Shown here in pieces: positions 27,565 to 54,646 of a DNA stretch of 64,000 bases. A program made the translations under genes and the position numbers. Each line of letters starts with the position of its first letter. Within the stretch, counting starts at the first letter, position 1. The notes below the pieces were generated by a model. That model had not been told where the DNA came from. It did not search any database and was given only the letters and a program-made list of their open reading frames with translations. The stretch is from a virus (Duplodnaviria; Caudoviricetes), in the IMG/VR virus record IMGVR_UViG_3300021431_000076, positions 128,001 through 192,000 of that record; one strand, given 5' to 3'.

Positions 27565-27638
27565 TAGAGTGAAAGATACTAAGACGACATTTACATAAAT
27601 TGAGATCTAATTATTTCATAAGGGAGGAATATATACAG

Positions 27639-28619
27639 ATGAGCGACATCAAAACATATTCTGATACTTATTTATATCAGAAATATCCTATTTATACAAA
27701 GAAACTTACAGATGCTATTATGAGAGATCCTGTAATTGAAAAGAATGCAGATACATTCTCAGATGTAGAGTATGTAGTTAAGAAAGCAAGAATCTCTGAT
27801 TCTTTAGTAAACATTCTCAAATCTAGAAATGTTATACTGTTAGCATGTGAAGATCCTCTTCCTAGAGCATTTAAAGTATTTGCTGCTAGAGATATGAAAT
27901 CTAAAGATAGAGCACTTAGAATCTTCATAGACTGTACTGGTGTAATTACTAAGTCTAAAACTTCTATGGATTATACTGTAAATGAATCTAAGCTTTTATC
28001 ATATCTATTATCTGCTGGTGTTACTATGGCTTATCATAAAGATGCTAGTATGATTACTAGAAGAAGTGCACTAGTTACTGGTTCAACAGAAGCATTTGCT
28101 AAATGCTTTACTTTCATTATAGACTATCTAACTAAAGTATCTATTCAGGAATCTAGTAAAGTAAAGGTAATGTATCTATCTTCGATGTATTTCCTAATTG
28201 GTCAGTTAGGATTAGATGAATCTAGAGCACAACCTATTGCTAAGAAGATTGCTGGTATTTCTGAAAGGGAAGCTACTATGCTAGATATGCTTCTAGAGAA
28301 ATATAGTGTTCCTAAGGGTGGAAATACTAGAGATCATTCTCCATATGAGAATATCAAAGTCTTTGTATCTGCTCTTAGAGAAGTAATGCATTTCAATGCT
28401 AAAACTATTAGTGTAGATATTGTAGTAGAGAGATGGATGCATTCTTATGGTGTAGGAACAGTATTTGCATTAGAATATTTCCCAGCATTCTCTGCTATGA
28501 TGACTGATGCTTATATTGGTGGTTATCTAAACTCTCAGAAGACTATAGAAAAAGTTTGTGGATCTACTATGGTTCAATATTCTAAGGATGCAATAGACTT
28601 TGTAAGTAGTTTAGCATAA
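27639..28619 (+). CDS. hypothetical protein heading the structural operon
   Basis: Start MSDIK behind GGGAGG; GACA-N6-TAA at 27586-27598. Confidence 0.8.
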   Translation: MSDIKTYSDTYLYQKYPIYTKKLTDAIMRDPVIEKNADTFSDVEYVVKKARISDSLVNILKSRNVILLACEDPLPRAFKVFAARDMKSKDRALRIFIDCTGVITKSKTSMDYTVNESKLLSYLLSAGVTMAYHKDASMITRRSALVTGSTEAFAKCFTFIIDYLTKVSIQESSKVKVMYLSSMYFLIGQLGLDESRAQPIAKKIAGISEREATMLDMLLEKYSVPKGGNTRDHSPYENIKVFVSALREVMHFNAKTISVDIVVERWMHSYGVGTVFALEYFPAFSAMMTDAYIGGYLNSQKTIEKVCGSTMVQYSKDAIDFVSSLA

Positions 28620-28634
28620 GAAAGTAGTGATAAG

Positions 28635-31600
28635 ATGAATATATTTGGCAGATTCTTATTACAACTAAACTTTGATTCTAATGGGTGTACTGATACAAGA
28701 GTTGCTAATGTAGGAGAAGTAAACTTTGAAACAGAATCTGCTATTAAAAGAGATCAAGGAAGATCTGCATATTTTCCTCCATATTCTAATGCAGGACTAA
28801 GATTTACAGATTCTACCAATAGTATCAAGTCTCTATTAGAAGATCCTAATAAAGAATTTACTATCTATTTTAACTACAAGATCAATAGAAGATATATAAG
28901 AAGAGATATGACTATCCTTCCAATTATATCTTATAGGGTAGGGAATGATATCATACCTTGTGTTTATATAAATAAAGGAAAGAATCTAGTATTAGACTTA
29001 GAATTTGCTGATCAAAGGCTCAAATTCTATTCTAGAGATATATCTTATACATTGAATGATAGATGGCATAATATAGTAATCACTAGGATAAGAAATACAT
29101 ATGCAATATATGTAGATGGTGTAAAGAATACAGAGTCTATAAACTACAATGGAGTTAAGTTTGGTGAACTATATGTAGGATTATATAGACTAACCTCTTC
29201 TAATATAGCCAAAACTTTTCATAATGGATGCTTAGATGATATATGTATAACAGATAAGGTTAATTATTTCGAAAACTTTGTTCCTCCAACTCTATATTGG
29301 AAAGGTTATGACTCAATAGATAACTTTCCTTATCATAGTATGCATAATATAAACAATCTAGATCCAGATTTAGCATTCCAAATGGAAAAGAATAGAGAAC
29401 ATACTGTACAGCAGATTATAAGAAATCAAGCAGGAAATATACCATATAGAATGAAGATAGAATGGTATACAGATAATGAATATTTCATTAATGATACAGA
29501 ATTGGTTAGAGTTAGAGATGATAAGAGGACTTATACAGTTCTAAGAATTTTCATGGTAGAAAATCTTCATATGTTTGTAGATAATACAGAAAGATTTGGT
29601 GAATGGGATGCTTTTACTGAAGTATCTATCAAATACACTATGTGGCCATTTGTATTATTTATAAATAAGAAGTTCATTGCTCTTAGTAGAATAAGAATAA
29701 TCAAATCTGATCATTGGTATACATTTATTATTCAAGATCTTCCTGCTACTGTTAAAGTAACAGACGTAAAGATGCTATTCATTCCTTTCAGATGCCTATA
29801 TGAAGAATATAGAGGAGAAAGACCAGATAAGCAAGTCTTATATTCTTTTAAAGAGAATGGAAAATTTGCTACAGATGGAGCAGACTTCTATTATTATCTA
29901 GATGATATACGAAATCCTAATCTTAAATGTAGTGGTATAAGAAGAGAAGTTATACCAGATTCTATATTAAAATATGAACCTCCTGGAAGTGGACCAGTAG
30001 AAAGTACACAATTAATGCATTACTCTTGGAGATATGGAAACTTTGAGACTAAAAGAAATGATGGTACTTCTACATATGTATATTTTATGGCTTGGGATAA
30101 TGGTTTTATAAAACCAGGAGATGAAGTTCTATTATATGCTGGAACTACATTGATAGATAAGGTTCACTATAGAGTAGTAGGATATGACCTTTTAGAGTTC
30201 TTCAACTATTATACACTAGGAATAGAAAACAAACTAATCACTATGTGTATAATAACTGATAATAGAGAAAATGAGTGGTTATTCCAAGACTATACAGATA
30301 CAAAAGTGGTACAAGTAACAGCCACGCAAAATAATCAAAATGTATTCAAAATACCAGATGTAAGTGATGATATGAGTGTACAGTTTGACAAATTCTTACT
30401 ATTCAAAGGATCTGTATCTTTAGAGAACTATAAGAGGTATAAGATAAACTATGAAAACGGAACAGTAGTTTTACTACATCCATCAGATTGGATGGCTTTA
30501 GGAAGAAATCTAACTTTTGTATTCGTAAGATTACATAAAGGGGATGAATGGGGTCCATTCTGGATGAAACCTATATTCCAATATATAGAGATAGATGTTA
30601 CTGATTCTATAAATGGATTTACTTCTGCTAATCCTCTTAAATCATTTGATCTTCCTGATCCTCAAAAATATAAGTATACTATGAGCAATACTATGCTCTA
30701 TGTTCATGATACGTTTATTCCTCCTCAAAGATATAGAATAGTAAATAATAAAACTGTAGAATTTGTTCAACCTGGAGATGGATTGTTAGGATTTCCTAAT
30801 ATAACTATAGTTCTTATCAAGATGGCAACTCAGTTAGAGAAAGATACTGCTAGAAATAAGATGGTAATAGAGCAGTATAGAAAAGGAAAGAGATTTGTCC
30901 TAACAAATACTGGTATAGATAAGAAGAGAAAGATTACTCTAGAAAATATAACTGCATTTGATCAAAATGGAGAATATGTAGATGATCTAATGGGATATAT
31001 CTATAATATGAATGTAATCAAACAGTTATATACTTCTGATCCTATGAAAAGAGTAGTAGAGTCTATACAGATAATATATCACGATTGGTCTGCAGAAAAC
31101 TATTCTAATATAACTTTACCAGATAATGATAACTATATTAAAAACTATCTGTGTATGTTTACAGAGTTTGAAGAACTAGATAAACATTTTGATGAATTCA
31201 TATCTGAATATGAAGATAAATATAGAAAGTATTTCCCATGGGCTAGTCCTAAGATACAATACCAATATGGAGTTAATCTAGCCAAGGAATTACAATATCA
31301 GACGTATTATAATCAAGATAAGTTTGATGCAGTTTATGAACGTAAAAGAACTGTTACTAGGAAGACATTCAACAAAGATACTATGAATGCTGAACTCAAA
31401 TTAGTAAATGGAAGATATACTATGAGTATTCCTCAGAATACTAAATGGTTTATCAATAATATATATGATACATATTCTCTATTCTTTAGAAATGGATATC
31501 TCATAGACCATGAACAATCAGTAAAATATGTAGGTAATGAATGTAAACTAAGTTTACCTTCTAAACTTACTACATATGAATGGTTTGAATCTATTGATTG

Positions 31601-32006
31601 TCATAAACAATTAAATAGACTTGATCCAATACCTTATGGAATAAAGAACTTCAATCCTCCTGCTAGTATAAATTATATACCAAATCCTTATTCTCCATCT
31701 GGTACTAATATATATAAGGATATAAACATGACAGTCATTGTACAAGAACACCATTATCAAGATATACTCAATATATCTGTGAAAGTAGATTGGTTCTATA
31801 AAACCAATATTGCTATCAATGAATTACCACCTGATAGAATAAAAGATATAAGTATTAATCTACATACTTCTGCAGATTGGCAGAAAGATCCTCTTATGAC
31901 TATATCTATTACTACTTGGACAGATCCTCCTCCATATGTACCACCTGCTGGATGGAAAGGTCCAGAATACTATGATATCTATTGCAAAATTACTACAACT
32001 AAATAA
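28635..32006 (+). CDS. large virion/baseplate-associated protein with N-terminal LamG-like domain
   Basis: FTI.F, WHNIVITR, IYVDG and G.LDDICIT; repeated beta domains. Confidence 0.7.
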   Translation: MNIFGRFLLQLNFDSNGCTDTRVANVGEVNFETESAIKRDQGRSAYFPPYSNAGLRFTDSTNSIKSLLEDPNKEFTIYFNYKINRRYIRRDMTILPIISYRVGNDIIPCVYINKGKNLVLDLEFADQRLKFYSRDISYTLNDRWHNIVITRIRNTYAIYVDGVKNTESINYNGVKFGELYVGLYRLTSSNIAKTFHNGCLDDICITDKVNYFENFVPPTLYWKGYDSIDNFPYHSMHNINNLDPDLAFQMEKNREHTVQQIIRNQAGNIPYRMKIEWYTDNEYFINDTELVRVRDDKRTYTVLRIFMVENLHMFVDNTERFGEWDAFTEVSIKYTMWPFVLFINKKFIALSRIRIIKSDHWYTFIIQDLPATVKVTDVKMLFIPFRCLYEEYRGERPDKQVLYSFKENGKFATDGADFYYYLDDIRNPNLKCSGIRREVIPDSILKYEPPGSGPVESTQLMHYSWRYGNFETKRNDGTSTYVYFMAWDNGFIKPGDEVLLYAGTTLIDKVHYRVVGYDLLEFFNYYTLGIENKLITMCIITDNRENEWLFQDYTDTKVVQVTATQNNQNVFKIPDVSDDMSVQFDKFLLFKGSVSLENYKRYKINYENGTVVLLHPSDWMALGRNLTFVFVRLHKGDEWGPFWMKPIFQYIEIDVTDSINGFTSANPLKSFDLPDPQKYKYTMSNTMLYVHDTFIPPQRYRIVNNKTVEFVQPGDGLLGFPNITIVLIKMATQLEKDTARNKMVIEQYRKGKRFVLTNTGIDKKRKITLENITAFDQNGEYVDDLMGYIYNMNVIKQLYTSDPMKRVVESIQIIYHDWSAENYSNITLPDNDNYIKNYLCMFTEFEELDKHFDEFISEYEDKYRKYFPWASPKIQYQYGVNLAKELQYQTYYNQDKFDAVYERKRTVTRKTFNKDTMNAELKLVNGRYTMSIPQNTKWFINNIYDTYSLFFRNGYLIDHEQSVKYVGNECKLSLPSKLTTYEWFESIDCHKQLNRLDPIPYGIKNFNPPASINYIPNPYSPSGTNIYKDINMTVIVQEHHYQDILNISVKVDWFYKTNIAINELPPDRIKDISINLHTSADWQKDPLMTISITTWTDPPPYVPPAGWKGPEYYDIYCKITTTK

Positions 32007-32080
32007 GAACACATATAAATGGGATATGGGAATAATCCCATATCCCAAATTTTAGTAAAAGAAAGAGAAAGGAGAGAAAA

Positions 32081-33679
32081 ATGGGTACATTTTTTACTGC
32101 TGATGTAATAAATATGAAGGCACAATACGCCTCAAAATTAATCAGTTCTAGTCGGAATTATTCAATAGTTGTAATACCAAACCACTACTCCTATCATGAT
32201 GATGAATTAATATATAATAACACAGAAATTTATCAACCACATACTCATAGTAGTGTTAATATACCCAATATATATTTTTATATTGAAAAAGCTCCAAACT
32301 CTATTGAAGTGCCTACAGAGTTTTCGCCTTCAATTAAAACAATAAATTTTAACTCTAATGATAGAAAATTCATCAATATTCCTTTACCATATAATTTTAA
32401 TGATAGTAACATAACACAAATAGATACAAAATATAGCTCTTTATCAATATTAACAAATCCAATATTATCAACTAAAGATCCAAAGTATTTTGAAGATCAA
32501 TATTCTTTTCCAGTGAAGCATTTTAAGTTTTCATTAGAATTTGCAGTTTTAAATAGTACAAATTGGGTTAATACAAACTTATTTAAAATCAGCCAATTTA
32601 AATCACCTATTAATAACAATTTTGAATATATTAGTGGCATTTCTGCTTATTTGATAAAAGGAAAAATTTATTTTAATATAACATATTTTAATTCAAAATC
32701 ATTAACATATCAAGCTCAAAACACGATATTTGATTCAATAAGTAGTCAAAACGAATATATTGTTGGTATTACAATTGATACATGTAATTTAAATGGGGAG
32801 TGGTTTATTGAAATAGATGCCACAACAAGTACTAATGGTACATATTTTATAGGGAAGTCTGCATTGATTAAAGGATGTATTTCAGAATTTTCAGATGTTG
32901 ATAGAATTTCAGAATCAATATTAGAAAATAACAGATATTTTGATAACAAATTTTCATCACCTATTAATGAATTAGATGGTAATATTGATTATACGAATGC
33001 AATAAAATTATTTGACAATACTCCTTATATGAATTCAAATGAACCATTAGAAGGTGAAGAGTTATTAGAATCTGAAAGTATTGATCATGGTATTATATCT
33101 TCTTTACCAGTTACATATGGTATTGACAATATAGATGATTATATATATTTATCCATTGGGAGTGGAACAGATCCGAGTACGGTAAATCTTCCTTCAGTTA
33201 TTTATTCTAACACAGATTCTATATTCAGACCAAGATTCTTTTTAGTAACTTGTAATGATTATGAAGAAACTGTTGAAAGCAACTTGAAATGCATTCAATT
33301 AAATAAACTGGTATTTTATACTAGTAAATATAAGGAAGATATAGAACAAGATATATTGAATCCTATTACTATATCTATTCCTCAACAAATTATCCCAGTA
33401 GACCCATTCAATATATCTATTACTACTACTAGTAATCTTAAACCATTAGCAGAAGTAGAGGATTATATAAATAAAACCTATCTTGGTACTCAACAAGCAG
33501 CAGAAGATTTCCAGTTACTGATGAAAGTAACTAAAACTTCATATTGGCCTGTAGAATATACTATAGATACGGATTATCATATACATATTAAACCAGATCC
33601 TATGTATATAGGAGTTGAATTGTATGCTTGTACTAATAAGCAATTCTTATATTGTAAATATGACATGATGAATATATAA
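32081..33679 (+). CDS. putative virion protein
   Basis: AGGAG SD; lies in the structural block; DILNPITIS motif. Confidence 0.65.
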   Translation: MGTFFTADVINMKAQYASKLISSSRNYSIVVIPNHYSYHDDELIYNNTEIYQPHTHSSVNIPNIYFYIEKAPNSIEVPTEFSPSIKTINFNSNDRKFINIPLPYNFNDSNITQIDTKYSSLSILTNPILSTKDPKYFEDQYSFPVKHFKFSLEFAVLNSTNWVNTNLFKISQFKSPINNNFEYISGISAYLIKGKIYFNITYFNSKSLTYQAQNTIFDSISSQNEYIVGITIDTCNLNGEWFIEIDATTSTNGTYFIGKSALIKGCISEFSDVDRISESILENNRYFDNKFSSPINELDGNIDYTNAIKLFDNTPYMNSNEPLEGEELLESESIDHGIISSLPVTYGIDNIDDYIYLSIGSGTDPSTVNLPSVIYSNTDSIFRPRFFLVTCNDYEETVESNLKCIQLNKLVFYTSKYKEDIEQDILNPITISIPQQIIPVDPFNISITTTSNLKPLAEVEDYINKTYLGTQQAAEDFQLLMKVTKTSYWPVEYTIDTDYHIHIKPDPMYIGVELYACTNKQFLYCKYDMMNI

Positions 33680-33695
33680 GTGAGGAGGTGAGATA

Positions 33696-36527
33696 ATGAG
33701 TCTACGTACATTATTTTCTTTAGATAAAACATTTAATTTTGAAAATAACTCTAATTTATTGAGGTCGACAGATAATACCACCTCTCTAACTTCTTGGGGA
33801 GGATTTCCAAGCGATGGAGAATATTATGATAATATAAAACCAACACTAGTTCAAGCTTCCACATCAGAATTTAATTCTGGGAGTAATTCATTAAAAATGG
33901 ATACTGTCTGTGGCATATGGGGATATACCAGTGTTGATGGTACAATCATATATAGGTCTAATAATTATTCTCCTGGATTTACCAAATATAATTATTATTA
34001 TAGAAATGATGATAAAGCCTGGGCATATGAAGAACTTGATATATCCTTTGATATTAAAATAGATTATCATTCTTCATATGATGGAGCTATAGGTTTTTTT
34101 ACTCTAAGTGATAGCTATCTAACTTTAACAAGTGCAATACCAACATTAGTGCACTATCCTAATAAAGCTATTTTAAAGTCATTAGAATTAGTTTATGCTA
34201 AAAATAGTTCCGATTTTAGGATATTCATGTTATGTAATTTTTTCTTAAATTATTCAGGAACTGCAAAAAGTATAAATACAAGATTTGATCTATGTGGAGC
34301 TAGTGCAGTCAATTTAGGATCAAAGGCCAATATTAATATAAAAAGAAATCTTGATGATACTCTACAAATATTAATAAATTCCTCAGAAGTCATAAAATTT
34401 ACTGATATATATACTGGTCCTATTACATCTGATACAAATTTAGCTAATAGTATAGGACCATCTGTAAATAAAATGATAAAGAATAATCAATCATCTAATG
34501 ATAATGATTTAATAAAACCATTTTTACCAACTACAGCATACAAAAACCTAGTAAGTAATTTTACTAAAACTACTCCAAGCACTGAGACTAAAATATGGAA
34601 TAAAACTGGAAGTGGAAATTCTACTGTATTTACAGCAACAGATGGAACTGTAACTCTTAATGGAAAATCTCAATATACAACATATTTTACCAATTTAAAG
34701 AATAAATACTATCCTAATATTTATATAGATAATCTCAGAATGAAACAAACATTATATGGCGAAGAACTTCCTGTTGATATACTCAATCCAGTATCAGTAA
34801 CAGTAGAGCCTCTTCAAACAGATTTTTCTGAAGATTTAATGAACCCAGTATCAATTTCAGTAAAAGAAGATGTAGAAAAAGATTTATTTCCTGTTTCTGT
34901 AGATGCTGCCAAAGATTTAATTACAGACTTCAATACATCAATAGACGTAAAGAAAGATGTTTATTATGAAAAATTACCTATTTCTTTAGAAGTAAAATTG
35001 AATGAGTTAAATCAAGATTTGTTCAATATTGATTTTACTGTAAATGCTCCTGTGTATCAATTAGAACTAGGACCAGAATTTAGATCTGGATGGGATGATA
35101 GAAAGTATCTTATCTTTAGAAATGGTGCTCTGCTTCCTAAACAGACTTACAATATCATTATTCCATCTCCTTTTAATAACTACTTAAAGAAAATGATATA
35201 CTCTACAGTTCCCTTCTGGAAAGAAGATAGAATTGAAGTATTTTATATAGAGAATCAGCAAAACTTTGCTAATGTACCATTCAATAGAGAAGTTAGAGTT
35301 GGTAGTTATATATATTATGCTAAATCAGAGAATCAGAAACTTATTAAGATTCCTTATCCAAACTCTTCTTATAGAAGATCTGCTGATGCATTCTTATTAT
35401 TCAATGATTTAGGAGAACATCTAGATTATAGATATGACTACACTGTATCTGCTGATGGAAGATATGTTACTTTAACTGATGCTAATGCATTAGAAGAAGT
35501 AATGGTAAACTATGTAGTATTTACATTCTGTTATGTAGGTAATAGATCTATTAATGGTCAGGAAGAAGAAACTGATCCAACTGATACAGTAAATCTGTCT
35601 GAAATCAAATACTCTTATTCTTATTCTAATGATAATCCTACTGATACTAGTGGATTAGTTACATTCTCTCCAACATTTGCCGATTGGCCTAATATGATTA
35701 AAGAGAACTATATGTTATTTGGTGATACTGTATTCATAGATCAATCTAGATATGATGTGGTTTCTAACAATCAAATTCAGTTTATAGACACTAATGAAAA
35801 ATTTATAGCAAATCAAAGAAGATATGTAATGTGCATTCCTGTAAAGGATACTAAACCTCAAAAATTAGCATCTAACCAAACCAGATATGAGGTAGTATTG
35901 ATTCCAAATAATGGTTCTACTGATCAATCTATATTTACATTACAACCTCCTTCTAATGGTGATTGGTATCCATATTTATTATTCAGAGGATCTAGACTCA
36001 TGGATGTCAAGAATGAGTATACTTATGATGAGACCACTAAGGTTCTAAAAATAACTGATTCTTCATGCTATTTACAGCCAGGAAGAAATTTAACTGTAGT
36101 ATACTTCAATAAATCTTATACTGATCTCAAGAAAGAAAACATTTATATCAAAATGCAATTTAAAGCCAGCTCTACTGGAACAACCGAGATACCTAAATCA
36201 TTGTATCAGAATAATGGTAATATACAATTTGATTATACTAATCTCATTGTATTCCTTAATGGTGTATATCTAGAACCAGATAGATACACAATAGAACCAG
36301 GAAATTGGATTAAATTTAATCCTAATATCAGCATAGCTGGTTATGGTCCACAACCATACGAAACCAAAATGTTTACAGCAATATATTTACTGGAATATGT
36401 AGATCCAGATGCTAATGCTGAAGAATTTAATGATGAATATAGTCAAAAAGAAGTGGATCCTTCTGAAGATAATGATGAGACTAGATTTGAAGAAGTGTAT
36501 GTTTATGTGAAGAAAAAACCAGTTTAA
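33696..36527 (+). CDS. large putative virion protein
   Basis: GAGGAGG SD; C-terminal half shares (F)RNG/LFRG/FLNG..Y beta modules with 28635 and 36546. Confidence 0.7.
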   Translation: MSLRTLFSLDKTFNFENNSNLLRSTDNTTSLTSWGGFPSDGEYYDNIKPTLVQASTSEFNSGSNSLKMDTVCGIWGYTSVDGTIIYRSNNYSPGFTKYNYYYRNDDKAWAYEELDISFDIKIDYHSSYDGAIGFFTLSDSYLTLTSAIPTLVHYPNKAILKSLELVYAKNSSDFRIFMLCNFFLNYSGTAKSINTRFDLCGASAVNLGSKANINIKRNLDDTLQILINSSEVIKFTDIYTGPITSDTNLANSIGPSVNKMIKNNQSSNDNDLIKPFLPTTAYKNLVSNFTKTTPSTETKIWNKTGSGNSTVFTATDGTVTLNGKSQYTTYFTNLKNKYYPNIYIDNLRMKQTLYGEELPVDILNPVSVTVEPLQTDFSEDLMNPVSISVKEDVEKDLFPVSVDAAKDLITDFNTSIDVKKDVYYEKLPISLEVKLNELNQDLFNIDFTVNAPVYQLELGPEFRSGWDDRKYLIFRNGALLPKQTYNIIIPSPFNNYLKKMIYSTVPFWKEDRIEVFYIENQQNFANVPFNREVRVGSYIYYAKSENQKLIKIPYPNSSYRRSADAFLLFNDLGEHLDYRYDYTVSADGRYVTLTDANALEEVMVNYVVFTFCYVGNRSINGQEEETDPTDTVNLSEIKYSYSYSNDNPTDTSGLVTFSPTFADWPNMIKENYMLFGDTVFIDQSRYDVVSNNQIQFIDTNEKFIANQRRYVMCIPVKDTKPQKLASNQTRYEVVLIPNNGSTDQSIFTLQPPSNGDWYPYLLFRGSRLMDVKNEYTYDETTKVLKITDSSCYLQPGRNLTVVYFNKSYTDLKKENIYIKMQFKASSTGTTEIPKSLYQNNGNIQFDYTNLIVFLNGVYLEPDRYTIEPGNWIKFNPNISIAGYGPQPYETKMFTAIYLLEYVDPDANAEEFNDEYSQKEVDPSEDNDETRFEEVYVYVKKKPV

Positions 36528-36545
36528 AGGAGGTGAATCTTGTAA

Positions 36546-39500
36546 ATGATGATAGTAGTGCCTGTAAAGTATAAATCTATAAAAGACTTAAACGGATCTT
36601 TATTTATAATCCCTTCTTCTAATCTAGACGGTTGTTTAGAAATAAAATCACGGTCTGATCTAGATGGTTCTTTGTCAATAAAAACATATGAAAACTCAAT
36701 AGATTTAGATGGAACATTAAATATTATATATTATGATTTTTCAGATTTAGATGGTTCTTTTAAAATAGATTTAAAAACAAGAGAAGCTGATTTAAATGGA
36801 GCTATTTCTTTTACTGGATATACAGATTCATCTTATTTAAATGGATCTTTCTATATCTCAGAAAAGACATATCTGAATGCTGCCATAGTCATATCTCAAA
36901 ATATGGATTCTAATGATTTATCTGGTAAATTAGAAATTAATCATCATTCTGACTGTGTAGATTTAGAAGGATCTATAAATATTCCAGTTGAAAGACAAAG
37001 TTATATTAATGGTAGATTTGAAATAAATAGATATACTGGGATAATTCAAGATTTAGATGGCTCAATAACTGTAAAAACATTTTATAGATATCTCTATTTT
37101 GATGGTATGATCAATATACAATACTATTCAGATAGTGATAATCTTAATGGATCTTTATTTATTAACCAATCAAACGGAAATAATGATCTAGAATCTAGAC
37201 TAGAAATTTCTAGAATTATAGATGATATTGATCTCAATGGTTCTATTGATATACCTTTAGAAAGGCATATATACTTGCCTGGTAGTTTAAATATAAACTC
37301 AGACAACGATTCAACTGACTTTGAGGGTTCACTTGAAGTAGTATATAATAAATTCTTAAATGGTACCCTTTCAATAGATTCTTATGAAGAATCTGATGAT
37401 TTTGATGGTAAATTATTTATCTCTTTTGATAGGTCAGCAAATTTACCAGGTTTATTAGAAATAGACTATTTTTATCAATATGATGATTTTAAAGGTTCAT
37501 TAAATATTATCCATCATGCCGATATCAACGGTTCTTTAGAAATCAATTCTTATAAAGATATAAATACTGATCTAAATGGTGCATTAAAAGTAAGCCTAGA
37601 TACAAACAGACTAGATTTGAAAGCTAGAATCTATATACCTTTAGAAAGATCAAAAGAATTATCTGGTTCTATAAAAATTCCATATTATTCTAAGGATCAA
37701 ACTGATTTAGAAGGATCAATATATATACCTTCTAAAAAAGATATTGCTGGATCTTTGATAATCACTGGAGAAGAATCAGATCATGAAGATCTAAATGGTA
37801 CTATTAATATACCTAGTCTTAGAAATATAGATCTATATGGTAATTTAAAAATTCCTAAATACTATGAAAGAAAAGGCAAATTCCTAAATGGTTCATTAGT
37901 AATAAGATATTCTGATAATCGCAATGATATTGATGGTAAGCTACATATCTATATTAAAGATAATTTTGATTTAAATGGTACATTATCAATTAAGCAGATA
38001 TCAATAACAGATGTACCGATATCAGTAACTATTCCTAGACCACAAATTGATCTAGAAGGTCAATTAGCAATTAGATACCCATTTGAAAATACTTTATTAC
38101 GAGATATAGAAATAACAGTTCCTAATCCAGAAGTAGATCTAGATGGTAAACTAGAAATTGTATATCCATTTGAATATACTTTATTACGAGATATAGAAAT
38201 AACAGTTCCTAGACCACAAATTGATCTAGATGGTAGACTAACTATTAGTCGTCCATTTGAAGATATTTTATTTAAATATATTAAAGTTACCGTACCAAAT
38301 CCAGAAGTAGACTTAGAAGGTTCAATATTAGTTGTATACCCATTTGAAAATACTTTATTACGAGATATAGAAATAACAGTTCCTAAGCCAGAAGTAGATT
38401 TAGAAGGTCAATTAGCAATTAGATATCCATTTGAAATAGATTTAATATCAATAAGTGTAGGGGTTGCAGTCACTGTAAGACCAGAACAATACGAACCAAT
38501 TGTTGGTGATTATATAGTAGAAATACCATGGCCAAATCCTCAATTAACTAATGAAGCCTTTACAATGTATCAAGTTAAATATCCTCCTGGTCAAACACCA
38601 TTTAAAATGGATCTTACTCTATTTAGCACAGGTTCTCCAGATAATTTATTTATTCCTAGAAGATTCTATGAAAAATATGATGAAAATCATGTAATTGTAT
38701 CTAATGAACTAGATCTAAATGAAGGAGACGAAATAAGATTCCTCTTCTGTCATAATGATGGTAAATATCATGTACAAAAACTAGAGTTCTATTATAAAGC
38801 TCAAGGTAATGCATCTTATTACTACTTAGATATGGATTCACCATATAAGAAAAATATTAATAACAGTACAGCTAAGTTCTTAGTGTTTGTAAATAGAAGA
38901 CTAGTTGTTCCTTATAAAGATTATGTTATAGATGATGAATTGGGAAGATTGACTTTTGTTAATGATACCCTTGCTAAAAATCCAGAAGATAAAATAGACG
39001 TTGTATGTTTCTTTACTGGTATAGATGATACTGCAGTTGCAGATCTTCCTATGAGTGGATATATTTATCTAAAGAGAAATATGATAGATAGAAACTATAA
39101 TAACAATCTTATGGCTACATTTATCAATGGTAGATTGATTCGAAGAGATAAGATTCTCCATATTTCAAATAATATTTATAAGATTAAAGAAGATATCAAG
39201 TCTAGACATGATCTACAAATACTGAATATGAGCAACTGTATAGATTGTATGGTTCCTTTCTATAAGCAATCTTCAAAATTCCCATATACAAAAACTAGTA
39301 TGCTAGATAGTGGGCAACTTCTATTCAATAAACGTGCTAAATATATTGAATGGGAATTCCCAGTAAGTATAACTATACCTGCACTTGCTACATATGGAAG
39401 ACAACATTTAACTATGTATCATAATCCAGTATACTTTAGTCCAGAATTCTTATTAGAAAATAAGAATAACTATCTATCTATAGTTCATGTAGCATCTCCA

Positions 39501-39986
39501 GCAGATTTAAATTATACTCTTACTTTCTATGCTAATGATACTGATCCAAATCCATCTACAATGAATATTAAAGTAGAACTTCATTTAAAGACTCCATTTG
39601 AAGAGCAGAAAGAAGAATCTAGATCTCCAATTCTATTATGTGTATTACCAGCTCAAGTAACAGCAATTCATAGTGATTATTGCTATTGCTCTTTACAGAT
39701 AAAGCAGATTATCAATCTAGATTTTTGGAATAAACAATTCTTAGAATCTTGTGATGGCATAACAATAAGAATGGAACCTGGTGTTACTCATTATGAACAA
39801 CCGTCTGAAGTATACTTTAATATGCAAGCAAATCAATTTGAAGACTTTGAGAAAGAGCAAATAAGTGTATTTGAGTATAGAATATCTGATAGTTATGATG
39901 GTCTAGGGAATATTAATTATATTAAGCATATTACATTCAATCCAGAAGAGAGTAATAAAGCTAATATAAGAAATTCCTATGATTGA
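36546..39986 (+). CDS. large putative virion protein with DLxGxLxI repeats
   Basis: N-terminal half made of ~14-aa DLxG(S/T)LxI repeats, then ~29-aa repeats. Confidence 0.75.
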   Translation: MMIVVPVKYKSIKDLNGSLFIIPSSNLDGCLEIKSRSDLDGSLSIKTYENSIDLDGTLNIIYYDFSDLDGSFKIDLKTREADLNGAISFTGYTDSSYLNGSFYISEKTYLNAAIVISQNMDSNDLSGKLEINHHSDCVDLEGSINIPVERQSYINGRFEINRYTGIIQDLDGSITVKTFYRYLYFDGMINIQYYSDSDNLNGSLFINQSNGNNDLESRLEISRIIDDIDLNGSIDIPLERHIYLPGSLNINSDNDSTDFEGSLEVVYNKFLNGTLSIDSYEESDDFDGKLFISFDRSANLPGLLEIDYFYQYDDFKGSLNIIHHADINGSLEINSYKDINTDLNGALKVSLDTNRLDLKARIYIPLERSKELSGSIKIPYYSKDQTDLEGSIYIPSKKDIAGSLIITGEESDHEDLNGTINIPSLRNIDLYGNLKIPKYYERKGKFLNGSLVIRYSDNRNDIDGKLHIYIKDNFDLNGTLSIKQISITDVPISVTIPRPQIDLEGQLAIRYPFENTLLRDIEITVPNPEVDLDGKLEIVYPFEYTLLRDIEITVPRPQIDLDGRLTISRPFEDILFKYIKVTVPNPEVDLEGSILVVYPFENTLLRDIEITVPKPEVDLEGQLAIRYPFEIDLISISVGVAVTVRPEQYEPIVGDYIVEIPWPNPQLTNEAFTMYQVKYPPGQTPFKMDLTLFSTGSPDNLFIPRRFYEKYDENHVIVSNELDLNEGDEIRFLFCHNDGKYHVQKLEFYYKAQGNASYYYLDMDSPYKKNINNSTAKFLVFVNRRLVVPYKDYVIDDELGRLTFVNDTLAKNPEDKIDVVCFFTGIDDTAVADLPMSGYIYLKRNMIDRNYNNNLMATFINGRLIRRDKILHISNNIYKIKEDIKSRHDLQILNMSNCIDCMVPFYKQSSKFPYTKTSMLDSGQLLFNKRAKYIEWEFPVSITIPALATYGRQHLTMYHNPVYFSPEFLLENKNNYLSIVHVASPADLNYTLTFYANDTDPNPSTMNIKVELHLKTPFEEQKEESRSPILLCVLPAQVTAIHSDYCYCSLQIKQIINLDFWNKQFLESCDGITIRMEPGVTHYEQPSEVYFNMQANQFEDFEKEQISVFEYRISDSYDGLGNINYIKHITFNPEESNKANIRNSYD
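38025..38450 (+). repeat. ~5 x 87-bp coding tandem repeat
   Basis: P(N/R/K)P(E/Q)(V/I)DL(D/E)G.L.I.YPFE..LLRDIEITV units. Confidence 0.8.
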
Positions 39987-40014
39987 TAATAAGACTTAAG
40001 TGAGGTGATATATA

Positions 40015-40956
40015 GTGTATTCACCTAGAAAATATTTTAGTGTGGTTAAATTTAAACCTACTGGTAGTAATGTAGATGATATGATATCTACCAATACATG
40101 GACTAAAAATGGATCATTAAATTTTACTCAGTCTAGTAAATTCAATGCTCTTAAGTATGAAACAAGGTCATGTTTAAGATATGAATTAAAACAAGCTGGA
40201 TATATTCAAAACACTGCTGGATTTACAATAGGAAATGAATATTCTCTGTCATTCTGGTTTAAAGTAGATAGAGAGTTACTAATACATCATTATGATTATT
40301 TAAAGAGTACTAAAACACCAGTTCCACTAATATCTTGGGGATCTAATACAAAGATATCTACATTTGAGCAAACTGGAATAGAAGATATGCCATATGGTAT
40401 GAAATTTGTAATGGGTGGAACATCTATTATTATTCCATACGATCCATTAGAATTATTAGATGAATGGTTTCATGTTCTAATAAATAAAGATACTTCAAAT
40501 AAATTTAGGATATTTATAAATGGCATAAAATATTGTGAACGTCCAGCAAACTTTACAATAGAACCTTTCACCAATATCAAGATAGGTAATCCAAGTAATA
40601 ATTCATTTACACATGACAATCCAATATATGTATATATAGATGAAATCTCTATATGTAATTCATGCATAACTATAGATCAATTCTGGCCATTCCCAAAATA
40701 TTTAATTGGTCTATATCCATCAGTAGATGTAAAAGATTTGAAAAAACGTCAATTACCAGCAGGTAAAACAAGATATGATATTTGTAACGATGCAGTAATG
40801 ATAGCAAGATCAAGGCATTTCAAACATAGCCACGAATGGAAAGATAATATGGTTACTAAATATAGATTTGATAGAAAAGAACCATATGCCAGCTCATTTT
40901 ATGAAAGTTGGATGGATAATCTAGATAGACCAGGAAACGAATACAAAAAACAATAA
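40015..40956 (+). CDS. LamG/concanavalin-A-like domain protein
   Basis: YSLSFWFK, WFHV, IFING and YIDEI motifs; GTG start behind GAGGTGA. Confidence 0.7.
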   Translation: MYSPRKYFSVVKFKPTGSNVDDMISTNTWTKNGSLNFTQSSKFNALKYETRSCLRYELKQAGYIQNTAGFTIGNEYSLSFWFKVDRELLIHHYDYLKSTKTPVPLISWGSNTKISTFEQTGIEDMPYGMKFVMGGTSIIIPYDPLELLDEWFHVLINKDTSNKFRIFINGIKYCERPANFTIEPFTNIKIGNPSNNSFTHDNPIYVYIDEISICNSCITIDQFWPFPKYLIGLYPSVDVKDLKKRQLPAGKTRYDICNDAVMIARSRHFKHSHEWKDNMVTKYRFDRKEPYASSFYESWMDNLDRPGNEYKKQ

Positions 40957-40960
40957 TCAT

Positions 40961-40992
40961 AGGAGTAGGCTTTATGCCTACTCCTGATTTTA
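40961..40992. terminator. hairpin between the convergent LamG and rSAM genes
   Basis: AGGAGTAGGC/GCCTACTCCT. Confidence 0.8.
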
Positions 40993-42039
40993 TTTCATCA
41001 TAAAATATTCTATGATTGGACTGTAATACGCCATTTTAATTCTACAGTAATATCCTTCTCTATCTTCACTACCAACCATGGGACACCCACCACGGCATAA
41101 TGGTTCTACAAAACAGTATTTACATCTATTTCTATAATTATTACATACTGTATCTGTTCTCAAAACAGTATTAAGAATTTCTTCTTCATCATCATCAACT
41201 GTTCCAAAAATATCTGAACTGTTATGACATTTATATATATTTCCTTCTTTATCTACATTCCATATAACTTTACCATTTTGGCATCCAAGTTTATTAAGTT
41301 CTTCATCTTTATCAGAAGCTATAATTCTATTTGTAGTTACAGATCTTTTCTTAGAATTTATATAGTTTCTACTTAGATGGTTGAATATGCTTTTATATGA
41401 AGATATTTCATCTTTATGATTTATCACATACCTCATTTGACTTTCTATTTTATTACAATCCATTTTTCTAAGTTCTTCACAATTATTGCATAAATCCATA
41501 ATTGTATCTATATTTAATCTTATATCATGATTGTGTATTTTTTTATATCTTCGATTTATTATTTCTACTGCATTAAGAAAATCTAATGGATAAGTATAAG
41601 AACTTAATACAGCAGATAGACCTAAAGTGTTAATATTAAGAATAGATGGGTTTTCTTTTACTACATCATATCCACGAACCTGTTCAGAATTAATACCATC
41701 CCATGAAACTGTGACTGACATATTATGGTTATTAATATATTCTATTTTCTCTTTATCTAACAATTTTCCATTTGTTATCATTCCATATGCTATATTGCCT
41801 TCAGTATTTTCTACTATATCCTTTATAGCATCCCAATAAATAAGAGGTTCTCCACCATAAAAAACTACAGCAAGTTTACGATCCTCTCTTTTACTATGTT
41901 TTTCTAAAAATTCCTTTACTTTTGAATCAACTTTAGAAGGGTCTGTATAATCTAAATCATGTTGTGCACAATATTTACAATTTAAATTACACTTTGGGCC
42001 AAGCATTATAAATATTCTATTTATTCTAACATCACCCAT
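40990..42039 (-). CDS. radical SAM enzyme with SPASM domain
   Basis: CNLNCKYC, YGGEP, TNG and SWDG; C-terminal C...GNIYKC...CKYC.....CRGGCP...YC. Confidence 0.93.
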   Translation of the reverse strand: MGDVRINRIFIMLGPKCNLNCKYCAQHDLDYTDPSKVDSKVKEFLEKHSKREDRKLAVVFYGGEPLIYWDAIKDIVENTEGNIAYGMITNGKLLDKEKIEYINNHNMSVTVSWDGINSEQVRGYDVVKENPSILNINTLGLSAVLSSYTYPLDFLNAVEIINRRYKKIHNHDIRLNIDTIMDLCNNCEELRKMDCNKIESQMRYVINHKDEISSYKSIFNHLSRNYINSKKRSVTTNRIIASDKDEELNKLGCQNGKVIWNVDKEGNIYKCHNSSDIFGTVDDDEEEILNTVLRTDTVCNNYRNRCKYCFVEPLCRGGCPMVGSEDREGYYCRIKMAYYSPIIEYFMMK

Positions 42040-42041
42040 TA

Positions 42042-43406
42042 TTATTCATCTCCTCCACAATCCATATCACCCATATCATCACTCATACAGTCAGTTCCAA
42101 TTTCATCACAATCTTGACATTCGCAATCTTCTGGAGTGTCACAGTTCAACCATATTTGTTCTTGGTTTTTCTTCCAGTTATCAAAATATGCATCAGCTTC
42201 AGCTTGTGTGTGAGAAATATGTTCTATCAATTTTTCTGCAGTGGTTCCATTGCTAAAATATGCTAAATATCCTTTTTTAGACTCTTTTAAAAATGTTACA
42301 GTTTCTGTTTCTTCTCCATAATATGTAGTATAAGTTATATCTCTAGTATAATATGTTTCAGTATTTATTGGAGTTAGATTAACAATACTATTTGCTGTAC
42401 CTGTAACTGATATTTTTCCATCTGCAGATATAGATATTCCAGATCCTATTTTTACTCCACCTAATGTTGTAGAGCTTGCTATTGGAAGATTATATTGAGA
42501 GCTAGTTGGTATTTCTGTTTTCTTAGCATAAGTTGATTCTGCATGAGATTTAGTTTCATATGGATCAAGATTAGGTAGTTCTGTTTTCTTAGCATAAGTT
42601 GATTCTGCATGAGATTTAGTTTCATATGAAGACAAATCAACAGTATCAGTTTTCTTAGCATAAGTAGCATCAGCATATGAATGTAATTCATATAAAGAAA
42701 AGTCTGGTAACTGAGTTTTTTTGGCATATGTAGAATCAGCATATGAATGTAATTCATATGGAGCAAGATTAGGTAGATTAGGCAATTCTGTTTTTTTAGC
42801 ATATGTAGAATCAGCATATGAATGTAATTCATATGGAGTAAGATTAGGCAACTGAGTCTTTTTAGCATATGTATTATCAGCATATGAATGTAATTCATAT
42901 GGAGCAAGATTAGGTAGTTCTGTTTTTTTAGCATAAGTTGATTCTGCGTGTGTTATTTTTTCATATGGATCAAGATTAGGTAGATCTGTTTTCTTAGCAT
43001 AAGTTAATTCTACATGAGATTTAGTTTCATATGGAGTAAGATCAGGTAGTTCTGTTTTCTTAGCATAAGTTGAATTTGCATATGAGTGTAATTCATATGG
43101 ATTAAGATCAGGTAGTTCTGTTTTTTTAGCATATATAACATCAGCATATGAATGTAATTCATATGGAGTAAGATTAGGCAACTGAGTCTTTTTAGCATAT
43201 GTATTATCAGCATATGAATGTAATTCATATGGAGCAAGATTAGGTAGTTCTGTTTTCTTAGCATAAATATCTAAATCTGTTTTAAGGGCAAATAAACTAA
43301 AATCTGGCAATTTAGTTATAGCATCTAACCCTCTGAGAATTAACTCTTGAAGTGATGGTGCTAATTCATCCCATACAACACGATCTTCATAATGAAAATT
43401 TCCCAT
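42042..43406 (-). CDS. fiber-like repeat protein with Cys/Asp-rich C-terminus (putative rSAM substrate)
   Basis: N-terminal ED....ELAPSLQ motif; 22-aa repeats; LPIASSTTLGGVKIG fiber motif; 6-Cys acidic tail. Confidence 0.8.
   Translation of the reverse strand: MGNFHYEDRVVWDELAPSLQELILRGLDAITKLPDFSLFALKTDLDIYAKKTELPNLAPYELHSYADNTYAKKTQLPNLTPYELHSYADVIYAKKTELPDLNPYELHSYANSTYAKKTELPDLTPYETKSHVELTYAKKTDLPNLDPYEKITHAESTYAKKTELPNLAPYELHSYADNTYAKKTQLPNLTPYELHSYADSTYAKKTELPNLPNLAPYELHSYADSTYAKKTQLPDFSLYELHSYADATYAKKTDTVDLSSYETKSHAESTYAKKTELPNLDPYETKSHAESTYAKKTEIPTSSQYNLPIASSTTLGGVKIGSGISISADGKISVTGTANSIVNLTPINTETYYTRDITYTTYYGEETETVTFLKESKKGYLAYFSNGTTAEKLIEHISHTQAEADAYFDNWKKNQEQIWLNCDTPEDCECQDCDEIGTDCMSDDMGDMDCGGDE
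42507..43265 (-). repeat. 11+ x 66-bp coding tandem repeat
   Basis: YAKKT(E/Q/D)LP.L.PYE(LHSYAD/TKSHAE).T units. Confidence 0.9.
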
Positions 43407-43520
43407 TAATGTATATCCTCCTTCTTAGAAATTCTTACCCAAATGTCTCGATAATCCTTTAACATACAAGGCACATCTATATAAAGGTATAAGTCTCTTC
43501 TATTATTTTTAAAAAGGGAT

Positions 43521-44234
43521 GTGTTTTATATGAGTAATACGAATACCTCCGGTGTTGATTTCATCAGCAAAGAAATTGAGAATCTGAAAAAGAAATTAGA
43601 TGGAACACAATTGAAGCTATACAACTCTATGATTGATAATTTGGTCACTTGTTGTAATGCTAAAGCAGGCACTGGAAAAACTACCGTAGCTACCATGGCA
43701 GCATTTGATTTGCTGCAAAAAGGAATCGTTACAAAAATTTATTACGTTCGTTTTCCAGATCAACTTATGCAGTCTCTTGGCGCGCTCCCTGGCGACATAG
43801 ACGAAAAAGAAGACTATTATTTCCAACCATTCTATCAAGCATGTGAAGAAATTGGCTTGGATAGATATCATTTAGAACGAGACTATGTACCTCAGAATAC
43901 TGTTAATCTTGAAACTATAATTACTATGCGTGGTATTAATATTAAAGAAGCAGCTGTTATCGTAGACGAAACACAGAATGCTTCTTTTAAAGATCTTAAA
44001 CTGTTGCTTACTAGATTACATGATGATTGTCATGTTGCTTTAATTGGTCATACTGCACAGATTGATAATGATAACTGTGTAAAAGAGAAAGCATTCATTC
44101 ATTATATGGAACATTTCTGCAAAAAACAATGGGCACAGAGAGTAGATCTAAAAAAGAATTATAGAGGAAAGATTAGTGCATATGCAGATGCACTATACTT
44201 AGATAATAATGATAAACCATTCGTTGTAGAATAA
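43521..44234 (+). CDS. phoH: PhoH-family ATPase
   Basis: AGTGKT, LGALPGD, MRG, VDETQN, LLTRL and G...QID motifs. Confidence 0.9.
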   Translation: MFYMSNTNTSGVDFISKEIENLKKKLDGTQLKLYNSMIDNLVTCCNAKAGTGKTTVATMAAFDLLQKGIVTKIYYVRFPDQLMQSLGALPGDIDEKEDYYFQPFYQACEEIGLDRYHLERDYVPQNTVNLETIITMRGINIKEAAVIVDETQNASFKDLKLLLTRLHDDCHVALIGHTAQIDNDNCVKEKAFIHYMEHFCKKQWAQRVDLKKNYRGKISAYADALYLDNNDKPFVVE

Positions 44235-54490: not shown

Positions 54491-54646
54491 ATACCAGTAG
54501 GAAACTCCTACTGGTATATTCTTTATTGAATAATTATTTTAAGACTTTTAGATAAGTTGTAATAAATAGAAGAAAGGAAGGAATCACATGAGCGTATTTA
54601 ATCCCGAAGATAAGATTACCTGGAATGAATTAGCTCCTTCATTACA
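54491..54646 (+). repeat. direct repeat copy 1 (terminator + promoter + SD + first codons)
   Basis: About 80 bp identical (54538-54619 vs 59940-60021) with similar flanks. Confidence 0.9.

Follow-up and report, generated by a model that had tools for sequence, protein, structure and literature searches.

A radical SAM/SPASM enzyme encoded with a Cys-tailed fibre-type protein in a jumbo phage, and a possible role in thioether cross-linking

Where structural proteins of phages are known to mature covalently, this is mostly by autocatalytic cross-linking of the capsid (HK97) or by proteolysis. Among radical S-adenosylmethionine (SAM) enzymes with a SPASM domain, QhpD, which acts on QhpC of quinohemoprotein amine dehydrogenase, and CrpC, which acts on CrpA of Methanococcus voltae, put non-alpha Cys thioethers into proteins (PMC13692751). 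PapB, the enzyme for PapA (freyrasin), works through a leader peptide and an RRE, the recognition element of peptides that are made by ribosomes and modified after translation (RiPPs), and its reaction depends on a carboxylate acceptor on the C-terminal side of the Cys (PMC12373016). We found no paper in which phage fibre proteins are matured by a radical SAM enzyme; the closest published case is CrpC/CrpA (2026). Here we describe a two-gene unit on the minus strand, at 40990-43406 of a 64,000-nt stretch of phage DNA (the window; positions 128,001 to 192,000 of virus record IMGVR_UViG_3300021431_000076). The unit encodes a 454-aa fibre-type protein with a Cys/acidic tail and a 349-aa radical SAM/SPASM enzyme. 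It seems to us fairly likely, from the sequences, that the two genes are an enzyme-substrate pair and that the enzyme puts thioether cross-links into the fibre tail. Phages would then probably apply to a part of the virion a cross-linking chemistry that has so far been known from natural products of peptide type. This reading builds on the anatomy of the genes, on the cofactor ligands and fold of the enzyme, and on the conserved presence of Cys-rich partners beside it in the fibre modules of phages. From these we infer that the tail is the substrate, which type of bond is formed and that the protein is present in the virion.

The fibre-type gene (42042..43406, minus strand) encodes the proposed substrate and is followed by the enzyme gene (40990..42039, minus strand); in the list of open reading frames (ORFs) of the window, the unit is flanked on both sides by + strand genes. 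The fibre stop codon TAA lies at 42042-44, and the ATG of the enzyme gene is at 42039, 2 nt on. The Shine-Dalgarno sequence of the enzyme gene, GGAGGA (42051..42056, minus strand), lies inside the last codons of the tail and is formed by the tail's own Cys-Gly-Gly-Asp codons. This indicates that translation of the two genes is coupled. The tail itself (residues 422-454; 42045..42143, minus strand), the proposed cross-linking site, has the sequence CDTPEDCECQDCDEIGTDCMSDDMGDMDCGGDE. Its 33 residues include 6 Cys, 10 Asp and 4 Glu, and these Cys (residues 422-450) are the only ones of the 454-aa protein. The residue before each Cys is N, D or E, and an acidic residue lies 1-4 residues downstream of each; the spacing of the Cys is irregular (5, 1, 2, 6 and 9 residues). 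Given the proteome Cys frequency of 1.14%, the binomial probability of such a Cys content is ~2e-6. The tail has the top Cys density among 378 ORFs of the genome and adjoins the genome's only enzyme of this family. It contains no C/S-x-P/A-x-R sulfatase site. A first-pass annotation of this DNA had described a unit running opposite to its neighbours, the 2-nt step between the genes, and a tail with 14 acidic residues and 6 Cys, each after D, N or E; the ORF coordinates and a direct reading of the tail agree with it.

Close relatives show which parts of the tail are kept. In locus L007, whose enzyme is 92% identical, the gene order PhoH, fibre, radical SAM enzyme, LamG is as in the window. The fibre of L007 (L007:1077-1805) is 242 aa long, has ~3 repeats and carries the same C-terminal domain and tail, the latter reading NCDTPQDCDQCQDCDEIGTDCMSDGL. 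The tail of a third close relative reads NCETPEECACSDCDEIGTDCMGDME. Five tail Cys are invariant in the three close relatives, and their neighbours change from D to E, E to A or Q to S; the flanks change conservatively, and the terminal length varies. A sequence search with the last 120 residues yielded no distant relatives, so that tail relatives were found via the enzyme instead.

The enzyme has ~60 metagenomic homologues (322-382 aa, E < 1e-20), and an alignment-based search revealed further members on viral and metagenome contigs. A search of viral contigs with the single protein gave no match, the alignment being needed to reach the members, and a DNA search of the phage collection also gave none. 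Among 185,579 prokaryote species (one genome each) there was 1 family member, in a termite-gut Elusimicrobia metagenome-assembled genome (L172), without a Cys-rich neighbour; the other 79 prokaryote loci were generic matches to the radical SAM N-terminal part. Judged by these searches, the family is essentially phage-borne. A partner was counted when a same-strand ORF with >=6 Cys in 30 aa lay within two genes of the enzyme; lineages were 80% clusters of enzymes, gene calls were crude, and ORFs further away served as background. Such a Cys-dense neighbour was present in 17 of 31 enzyme lineages versus 6 of 371 background ORFs (1.6%; Fisher P = 6e-17). In the window's clade, which has a support of 99/98 in the enzyme tree, inspection found a Cys-cluster protein directly upstream of the enzyme on the same strand in 8/8 lineages. 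Partner type and side track the enzyme tree. Adjacency to Cys-dense proteins is kept across enzyme lineages down to ~35% identity, and the partner bodies are unrelated. Since the Cys cluster travels with the enzyme while the body of the partner is not conserved, and since the two genes of the window appear translationally coupled, an enzyme-substrate relation is the best reading of the pair.

The partners take several forms. Six relatives of the same clade (L001, L012, L013, L002, L008 and L009), with enzymes 42-50% identical, have a 175-222-aa protein 8-17 nt upstream of the enzyme, directly after tail-fibre genes. These proteins have in common a conserved FPIKY-type core, an internal loop rich in (D/N)C and a C-terminal tail whose length varies; the tail of the L001 partner, on a 334-kb contig, ends PEDCSEPDCQCSEEINCPDDGADGGL. 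Other clades have one or two proteins of 80-300 aa with Cys-Gln ladders downstream of the enzyme, in the order tape measure, Dit, tail fibre and then the cassette, and in siphovirus relatives the cassette lies between tail-fibre and lysis genes. In the small Cys-Gln proteins the N-terminal part is helical and conserved. Scans of NCBIfam, Pfam and PHROG gave no family match to the Cys-rich partners. The window differs from these other loci in that the tail is carried by a long repeat fibre with a docking-type N-terminus, not by a small separate protein, which connects the proposed substrate module with a protein of virion type.

The first-pass annotation had called for a search of phages for radical SAM homologues next to Cys-rich genes, and the result was positive (17/31 lineages, and all 8 in the window's clade); these sequence comparisons support its interpretation that RiPP-type cross-linking is applied to the fibre tip. 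It had also supposed that the shaft stands in for a leader peptide. This is unlikely because the length of the shaft varies freely and the bodies differ among the clade relatives: in L007 only ~3 repeats stand before the retained C-terminal domain and tail, and the 175-222-aa proteins are unrelated to the fibre. In a relative from a bovine metagenome, 675 nt of the shaft are absent. The repeat number of the shaft (window 42584-43260) varies among close relatives, and the C-terminal domain and the tail are constant.

Some loci of the family hold further genes. In the window's clade the enzyme comes with a nucleotidyltransferase-like gene of ~250 aa (PHROG 388, weak RlaP; L001:7028-7783, L002:7020-7799, L008:6007-6777, L009:3590-4333). 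The window pair has a single enzyme and no nucleotidyltransferase-like gene adjacent; a distant homologue lies elsewhere in the same phage genome (G000 ~237,619-238,233), ~68 kb from the radical SAM gene. A much larger version of the cassette was observed on a 232-kb and a 56-kb contig (L005:204-7653 and L006), where a jumbo phage has seven tandem radical SAM genes, then two small Cys-Gln-ladder proteins and a ThiF-like gene. Proteins of 244-300 aa, each with >25 Cys in Cys-Gln ladders, come after paired enzymes of the same family at L011:6082-6816, L018:7061-7954 and L092:1107-2009; these loci have nucleoside deoxyribosyltransferase-like and helicase genes instead of tail genes.

The enzyme is a member of the radical SAM superfamily (PF04055, 55.1 bits vs a cut-off of 29.5). 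In an alignment of 43 homologues the CX3CX2C triad C17/C21/C24 is invariant, C271, C306, C309, C315, C319 and C332 are likewise invariant, and C253 is nearly so. The SPASM spacing is complete (C253-x12-G-x4-C271, C306-x2-C309-x5-C315-x3-C319, C332), and this full seven-Cys sequence pattern assigns the enzyme to the SPASM subgroup. An AlphaFold2 (AF2) model of the enzyme has a pLDDT (a prediction of the local distance difference test score) of 91.9. Its top fold matches, over the full length, are CteB, ChlB and the anaerobic sulfatase maturase anSME, and the epimerase EpeE is also among the matches. The HMMER alignment to CteB spans the SAM and SPASM parts, with enzyme residue 11 at CteB residue 101. 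The enzyme thus begins where the catalytic domain of CteB begins, with the radical SAM motif from residue 17, and therefore has no RRE. No match to the PqqD-like RRE (PF05402) was found in the whole genome at E<=1. The triad, the seven SPASM Cys and the start of the CteB alignment are in line with the earlier description of a radical SAM/SPASM enzyme that has no N-terminal RRE.

Profiles of named maturases were also compared with the enzyme. The best of 57 NCBIfam families was PapB (NF047865), at 103.1 bits vs a cut-off of 340, and the best profiles are all Cys-thioether maturases, namely PapB, nif11-type enzymes, QhpD (TIGR03906, 82 bits vs 453) and SCIFF (TIGR03974, 70 vs 425). CcpM (TIGR04068) scored 54 bits vs 500, anSME (TIGR03942) 48.6 vs 349, the CrpC family (TIGR04463) 26.8 vs 525 and on the radical SAM core only, and the CXXX-repeat enzyme (TIGR04115) 18 vs 350. 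Identity with a CXXX-repeat system was rejected on that score of 18 bits, the absence of a match to its target TIGR04114 at E<=1, and the irregular spacing of the tail Cys.

In organization, the window pair resembles each of the known systems in part. It has in common with PapB/PapA the radical SAM and SPASM parts with three clusters, adjacent genes for enzyme and proposed substrate, and in the latter a run of Cys, each with Asp or Glu a few residues on. It differs from PapB/PapA in its score, far under the PapB cut-off, in having neither an RRE nor a PqqD-like match in the genome, in a proposed substrate that forms the C-terminus of a 454-aa protein of structural type and is not a short peptide, and in its irregular Cys spacing, which is CX3D in PapA. 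QhpD/QhpC and CrpC/CrpA are alike in that SPASM enzymes act on proteins and the Cys-rich part is C-terminal and encoded beside the enzyme. These two systems are cellular rather than viral, their substrates are not virion parts, both of their enzymes have an RRE, and the window enzyme scores low against both profiles. CteB (SCIFF, PDB 5WGG) is the best match of solved structure by both sequence and fold, with SAM and SPASM domains, whereas identity is 20%, CteB has ~100 extra N-terminal residues (RRE), and its substrate CteA, a peptide of 45 aa, carries a Cys-Thr bridge. The enzyme anSME (PDB 4K36-39) is of the same size class, lacks an RRE, acts on a protein and matches the fold over its full length. 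Unlike the proposed reaction, it makes formylglycine at a single site; its profile score is likewise far under the cut-off, and the window tail has no CxPxR. By analogy, the window enzyme may be most like PapB or QhpD in its working, but without their RRE.

The 454-aa protein has the features of a phage fibre. A docking-type motif including ELAPSLQ occupies residues 6-20 (43347..43391, minus strand). ELAPSLQ occurs in exactly 3 proteins of the genome, the 454-aa protein and those at 54588 and 59990, in which it lies at the N-termini of repeat proteins of 1448 aa and 269 aa. This N-terminus is plausibly a common docking plug. It is followed by a repeat shaft of 12 copies of a 22-aa unit (42508..43266, minus strand), for which Tandem Repeats Finder (TRF) gives a 66-nt period and 11.4 copies. 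Residues 302-338 (42393..42503, minus strand) form a widespread phage fibre motif of the LP.AS..TLGGVK.G type. The homology search gave 61 matches confined to that segment, in dozens of fibre proteins, most of which carry PF11133, the head-fibre family of Pfam. The motif also matches PHROG 9625 and 38707, and no Pfam family reaches its cut-off on the 454-aa protein itself. The shared N-terminus, the repeats and the fibre motif had all been named in the first-pass annotation, and the three carriers, 12 copies and 61 matches confirm them. With the docking N-terminus, the shaft and the common motif all present, the sequence supports the view that the protein is a virion fibre, of head or tail.

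The C-terminal body domain (residues 339-421; 42144..42392, minus strand) is predicted, with low confidence, to be a small beta sheet and one helix. An exhaustive HMMER search with the last 120 residues found no homologues of this domain beyond close relatives; it returned one 76-aa fragment of a close relative (91% identity) and a repeat in a 4350-aa protein. In the latter, a metagenomic protein (P0187), 11 copies of a ~28-aa segment resemble fibre residues 338-365 (E = 1e-17). The AF2 model of residues 296-454, built from 3 sequences, shows four strands and a helix, of which only the rough secondary structure was used. A search of the ESM Atlas for look-alikes of the C-terminal part gave no usable match, and the Atlas model has a pLDDT of 0.41. 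Elsewhere in the window, the C-terminal ~100 residues of the 1448-aa fibre (58611-58916) are 35% identical to a 172-aa protein (L001:7790-8308), a fibre protein encoded two genes past the enzyme in the 334-kb relative L001. This homology suggests that fibre modules are shuffled between these jumbo phages.

Could the pair be real and the chemistry another one? Like anSME, the enzyme might oxidise Cys to yield formylglycine; it might also epimerise residues or form some other bond. The presence of anSME and EpeE among the fold matches fits such a reaction, as does the fact that anSME, at ~370 aa, also modifies a protein without an RRE; moreover, homology cannot tell the chemistry, as all named families score under their cut-offs. 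We consider a different chemistry unlikely, since the tail lacks the sulfatase motif and the best profile matches are all Cys-thioether enzymes. Cys density is also the one feature common to all partner types, which fits cross-linking better than oxidation at a single site. The nearest characterised enzymes make Cys thioethers, to Asp or Glu (PapB, QhpD), to Thr (CteB) or to other residues (CrpC), and each tail Cys has a carboxylate within 4 residues on its C-terminal side; multiple thioether bridges are therefore favoured. A different possibility is that the tail binds metal or an Fe-S cluster, or forms disulfides, with no need of an enzyme, and that the target of the radical SAM enzyme is unrelated to it (DNA, a nucleotide or a different protein). 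Conservation of the Cys-dense adjacency down to ~35% enzyme identity, despite unrelated partner bodies, argues against this possibility, and so do the coupling of tail and enzyme in translation and the fact that SPASM enzymes of this profile neighbourhood modify peptides or proteins. In its favour, Cys/Asp-rich tails can bind metal, and in the clade relatives a nucleotidyltransferase-like gene stands with the enzyme. A complex prediction (enzyme alignment, fibre residues 375-454, three 4Fe-4S clusters and SAM) gave no answer (score 0.02), which speaks neither for nor against binding. We give this possibility a low probability, lower than that of another chemistry. Lowest of all we place a released RiPP-type peptide, a bacteriocin or a signalling peptide, for which the fibre-like protein would be a long leader and from which the cross-linked tail would be cut off. 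The leader and core logic of RiPPs, the conserved helical N-terminal part of the small Cys-Gln proteins, and the cassette of the siphovirus relatives, which occupies a typical moron site, are consistent with release, whereas neither a protease nor an exporter is next to the pair in the window, L001, L002, L007, L008 or L009. A long shaft would be wasteful as a leader, the docking N-terminus of the 454-aa protein is common to two other fibres, and the phage, at 333 kb, is a jumbo phage of lytic type that has an RNA polymerase of its own.

Several observations weigh against thioether cross-linking of the tail by this enzyme. PapB, CteB, QhpD and CrpC all carry an RRE, and the window enzyme does not. 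The enzyme scores under the curated cut-off of every named maturase family tested. The Pfam SPASM model (PF13186) has no match at E<=0.01 on the enzyme and none at E<=1 genome-wide, which we ascribe to a SPASM domain too diverged for the model. In 14 of the 31 lineages there was no Cys-dense neighbour at the threshold, partly owing to crude gene calling. The model of the C-terminal domain is of low confidence (pLDDT 47), and incorporation of the 454-aa protein into the virion is deduced from features of its sequence. As for expression, contigs of two metatranscriptome libraries match exactly, and one of them spans 42001-42292, that is, the tail and the enzyme start. This is a weak hint of transcription, and the contigs may be contaminating DNA. 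They leave most of the radical SAM gene uncovered, and these gaps carry no information on transcription.

If the enzyme does cross-link the tail, the following mechanism can be proposed. The fibre would consist of a ~20-aa docking N-terminus, the 12-repeat shaft, the fibre motif, a small domain towards the C-terminus and the 33 residues of an exposed tail, and the 349-aa enzyme would be translated off the fibre's message. Near each Cys, the SAM cluster of the enzyme would remove a hydrogen from a carbon of the backbone or of a side chain, the likeliest acceptor being the beta or gamma carbon of a neighbouring Asp, Glu or Asn. Joining of this carbon to the Cys sulfur would produce several non-reducible thioether bridges, and the floppy tail would become a compact knot, resistant to proteases and reductants, at the fibre's far end. 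Recognition would need neither RRE nor leader and would probably occur via the tail itself or the domain just before it. The broader proposal, for which we see an even chance, is that phages of anaerobic gut hosts have a dedicated, leader-independent radical SAM/SPASM family that staples virion fibres by thioethers. The tail would be a portable module among unrelated bodies, carried by the long repeat fibre in the window, by a small fibre-associated protein in the relatives and by Cys-Gln ladders in other clades. This would be an as yet undescribed class of post-translational, enzyme-driven hardening or diversification of the host-contact apparatus.

The virus record that holds the whole 64-kb window is 332,775 bp long, is judged complete and has 31% G+C. 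Among its products are the beta subunit of a multisubunit RNA polymerase, topoisomerase II, a DnaB-type helicase, PhoH and an endolysin. The source is a lytic-type jumbo phage of ~333 kb with its own RNA polymerase. In the window, a Laminin_G_3 (LamG) protein gene (40015-40956, + strand) is the convergent neighbour of the enzyme gene, and a PhoH gene (43521-44234, + strand) lies on the fibre-gene side; both were identified by Pfam scan. The LamG gene is the last of a block of large structural-type genes (27600-40956) beside the unit. This block includes a 1146-aa protein (36546-39986) with many short DL(D/N)GS-type repeats, whose family match is a weak TamB only and which is probably a beta-helical fibre or baseplate protein. 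A hairpin with an 11-bp stem (40960..40986, no strand assigned) lies between the convergent enzyme and LamG genes and is terminator-like on both strands. The fibre gene has a Shine-Dalgarno sequence AAGGAGG (43417..43423, minus strand; direct sequence reading) and a promoter-like motif GACA-N6-TAA (43435..43447, minus strand), 29 nt 5' of its start codon. There are 19 copies of this motif genome-wide on both strands, 13 of them <=100 nt upstream of an ORF, suggesting that the motif is real and promoter-like. The ORFs concerned include a 5536-aa gene, and window copies also lie upstream of 27600 and of 13840. The motif resembles AACA-N6-TW, the late promoter of phage-encoded multisubunit RNA polymerases such as that of phage AR9, and it is a candidate promoter class for the phage's own polymerase. 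Both the terminal hairpin and this motif, as a promoter, had been pointed out in the first-pass annotation, and both hold up, the latter as a promoter-like element.

Almost all of the window occurs in one animal gut metagenome (share of its sampled words 0.97), and a bovine metagenome contains a relative; sequencing runs with a small share of words were left out of this habitat reading. Occurrence in the animal gut fits an anaerobic host, where radical SAM enzymes work. If our reading is true, a thioether knot of RiPP type that an enzyme installs on a fibre would represent virion chemistry of a new kind, and it could account for how phage fibres of gut and rumen withstand proteases and reducing conditions. 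The enzyme would be a natural RRE-less thioether maturase at the protein level, which could serve in C-terminal stapling of recombinant proteins. The pair is small and self-contained, with two genes whose synthesis and co-expression are feasible, so that the hypothesis is directly testable. Protein ranthionines, described for CrpC in 2026, would then extend from archaea to viruses.

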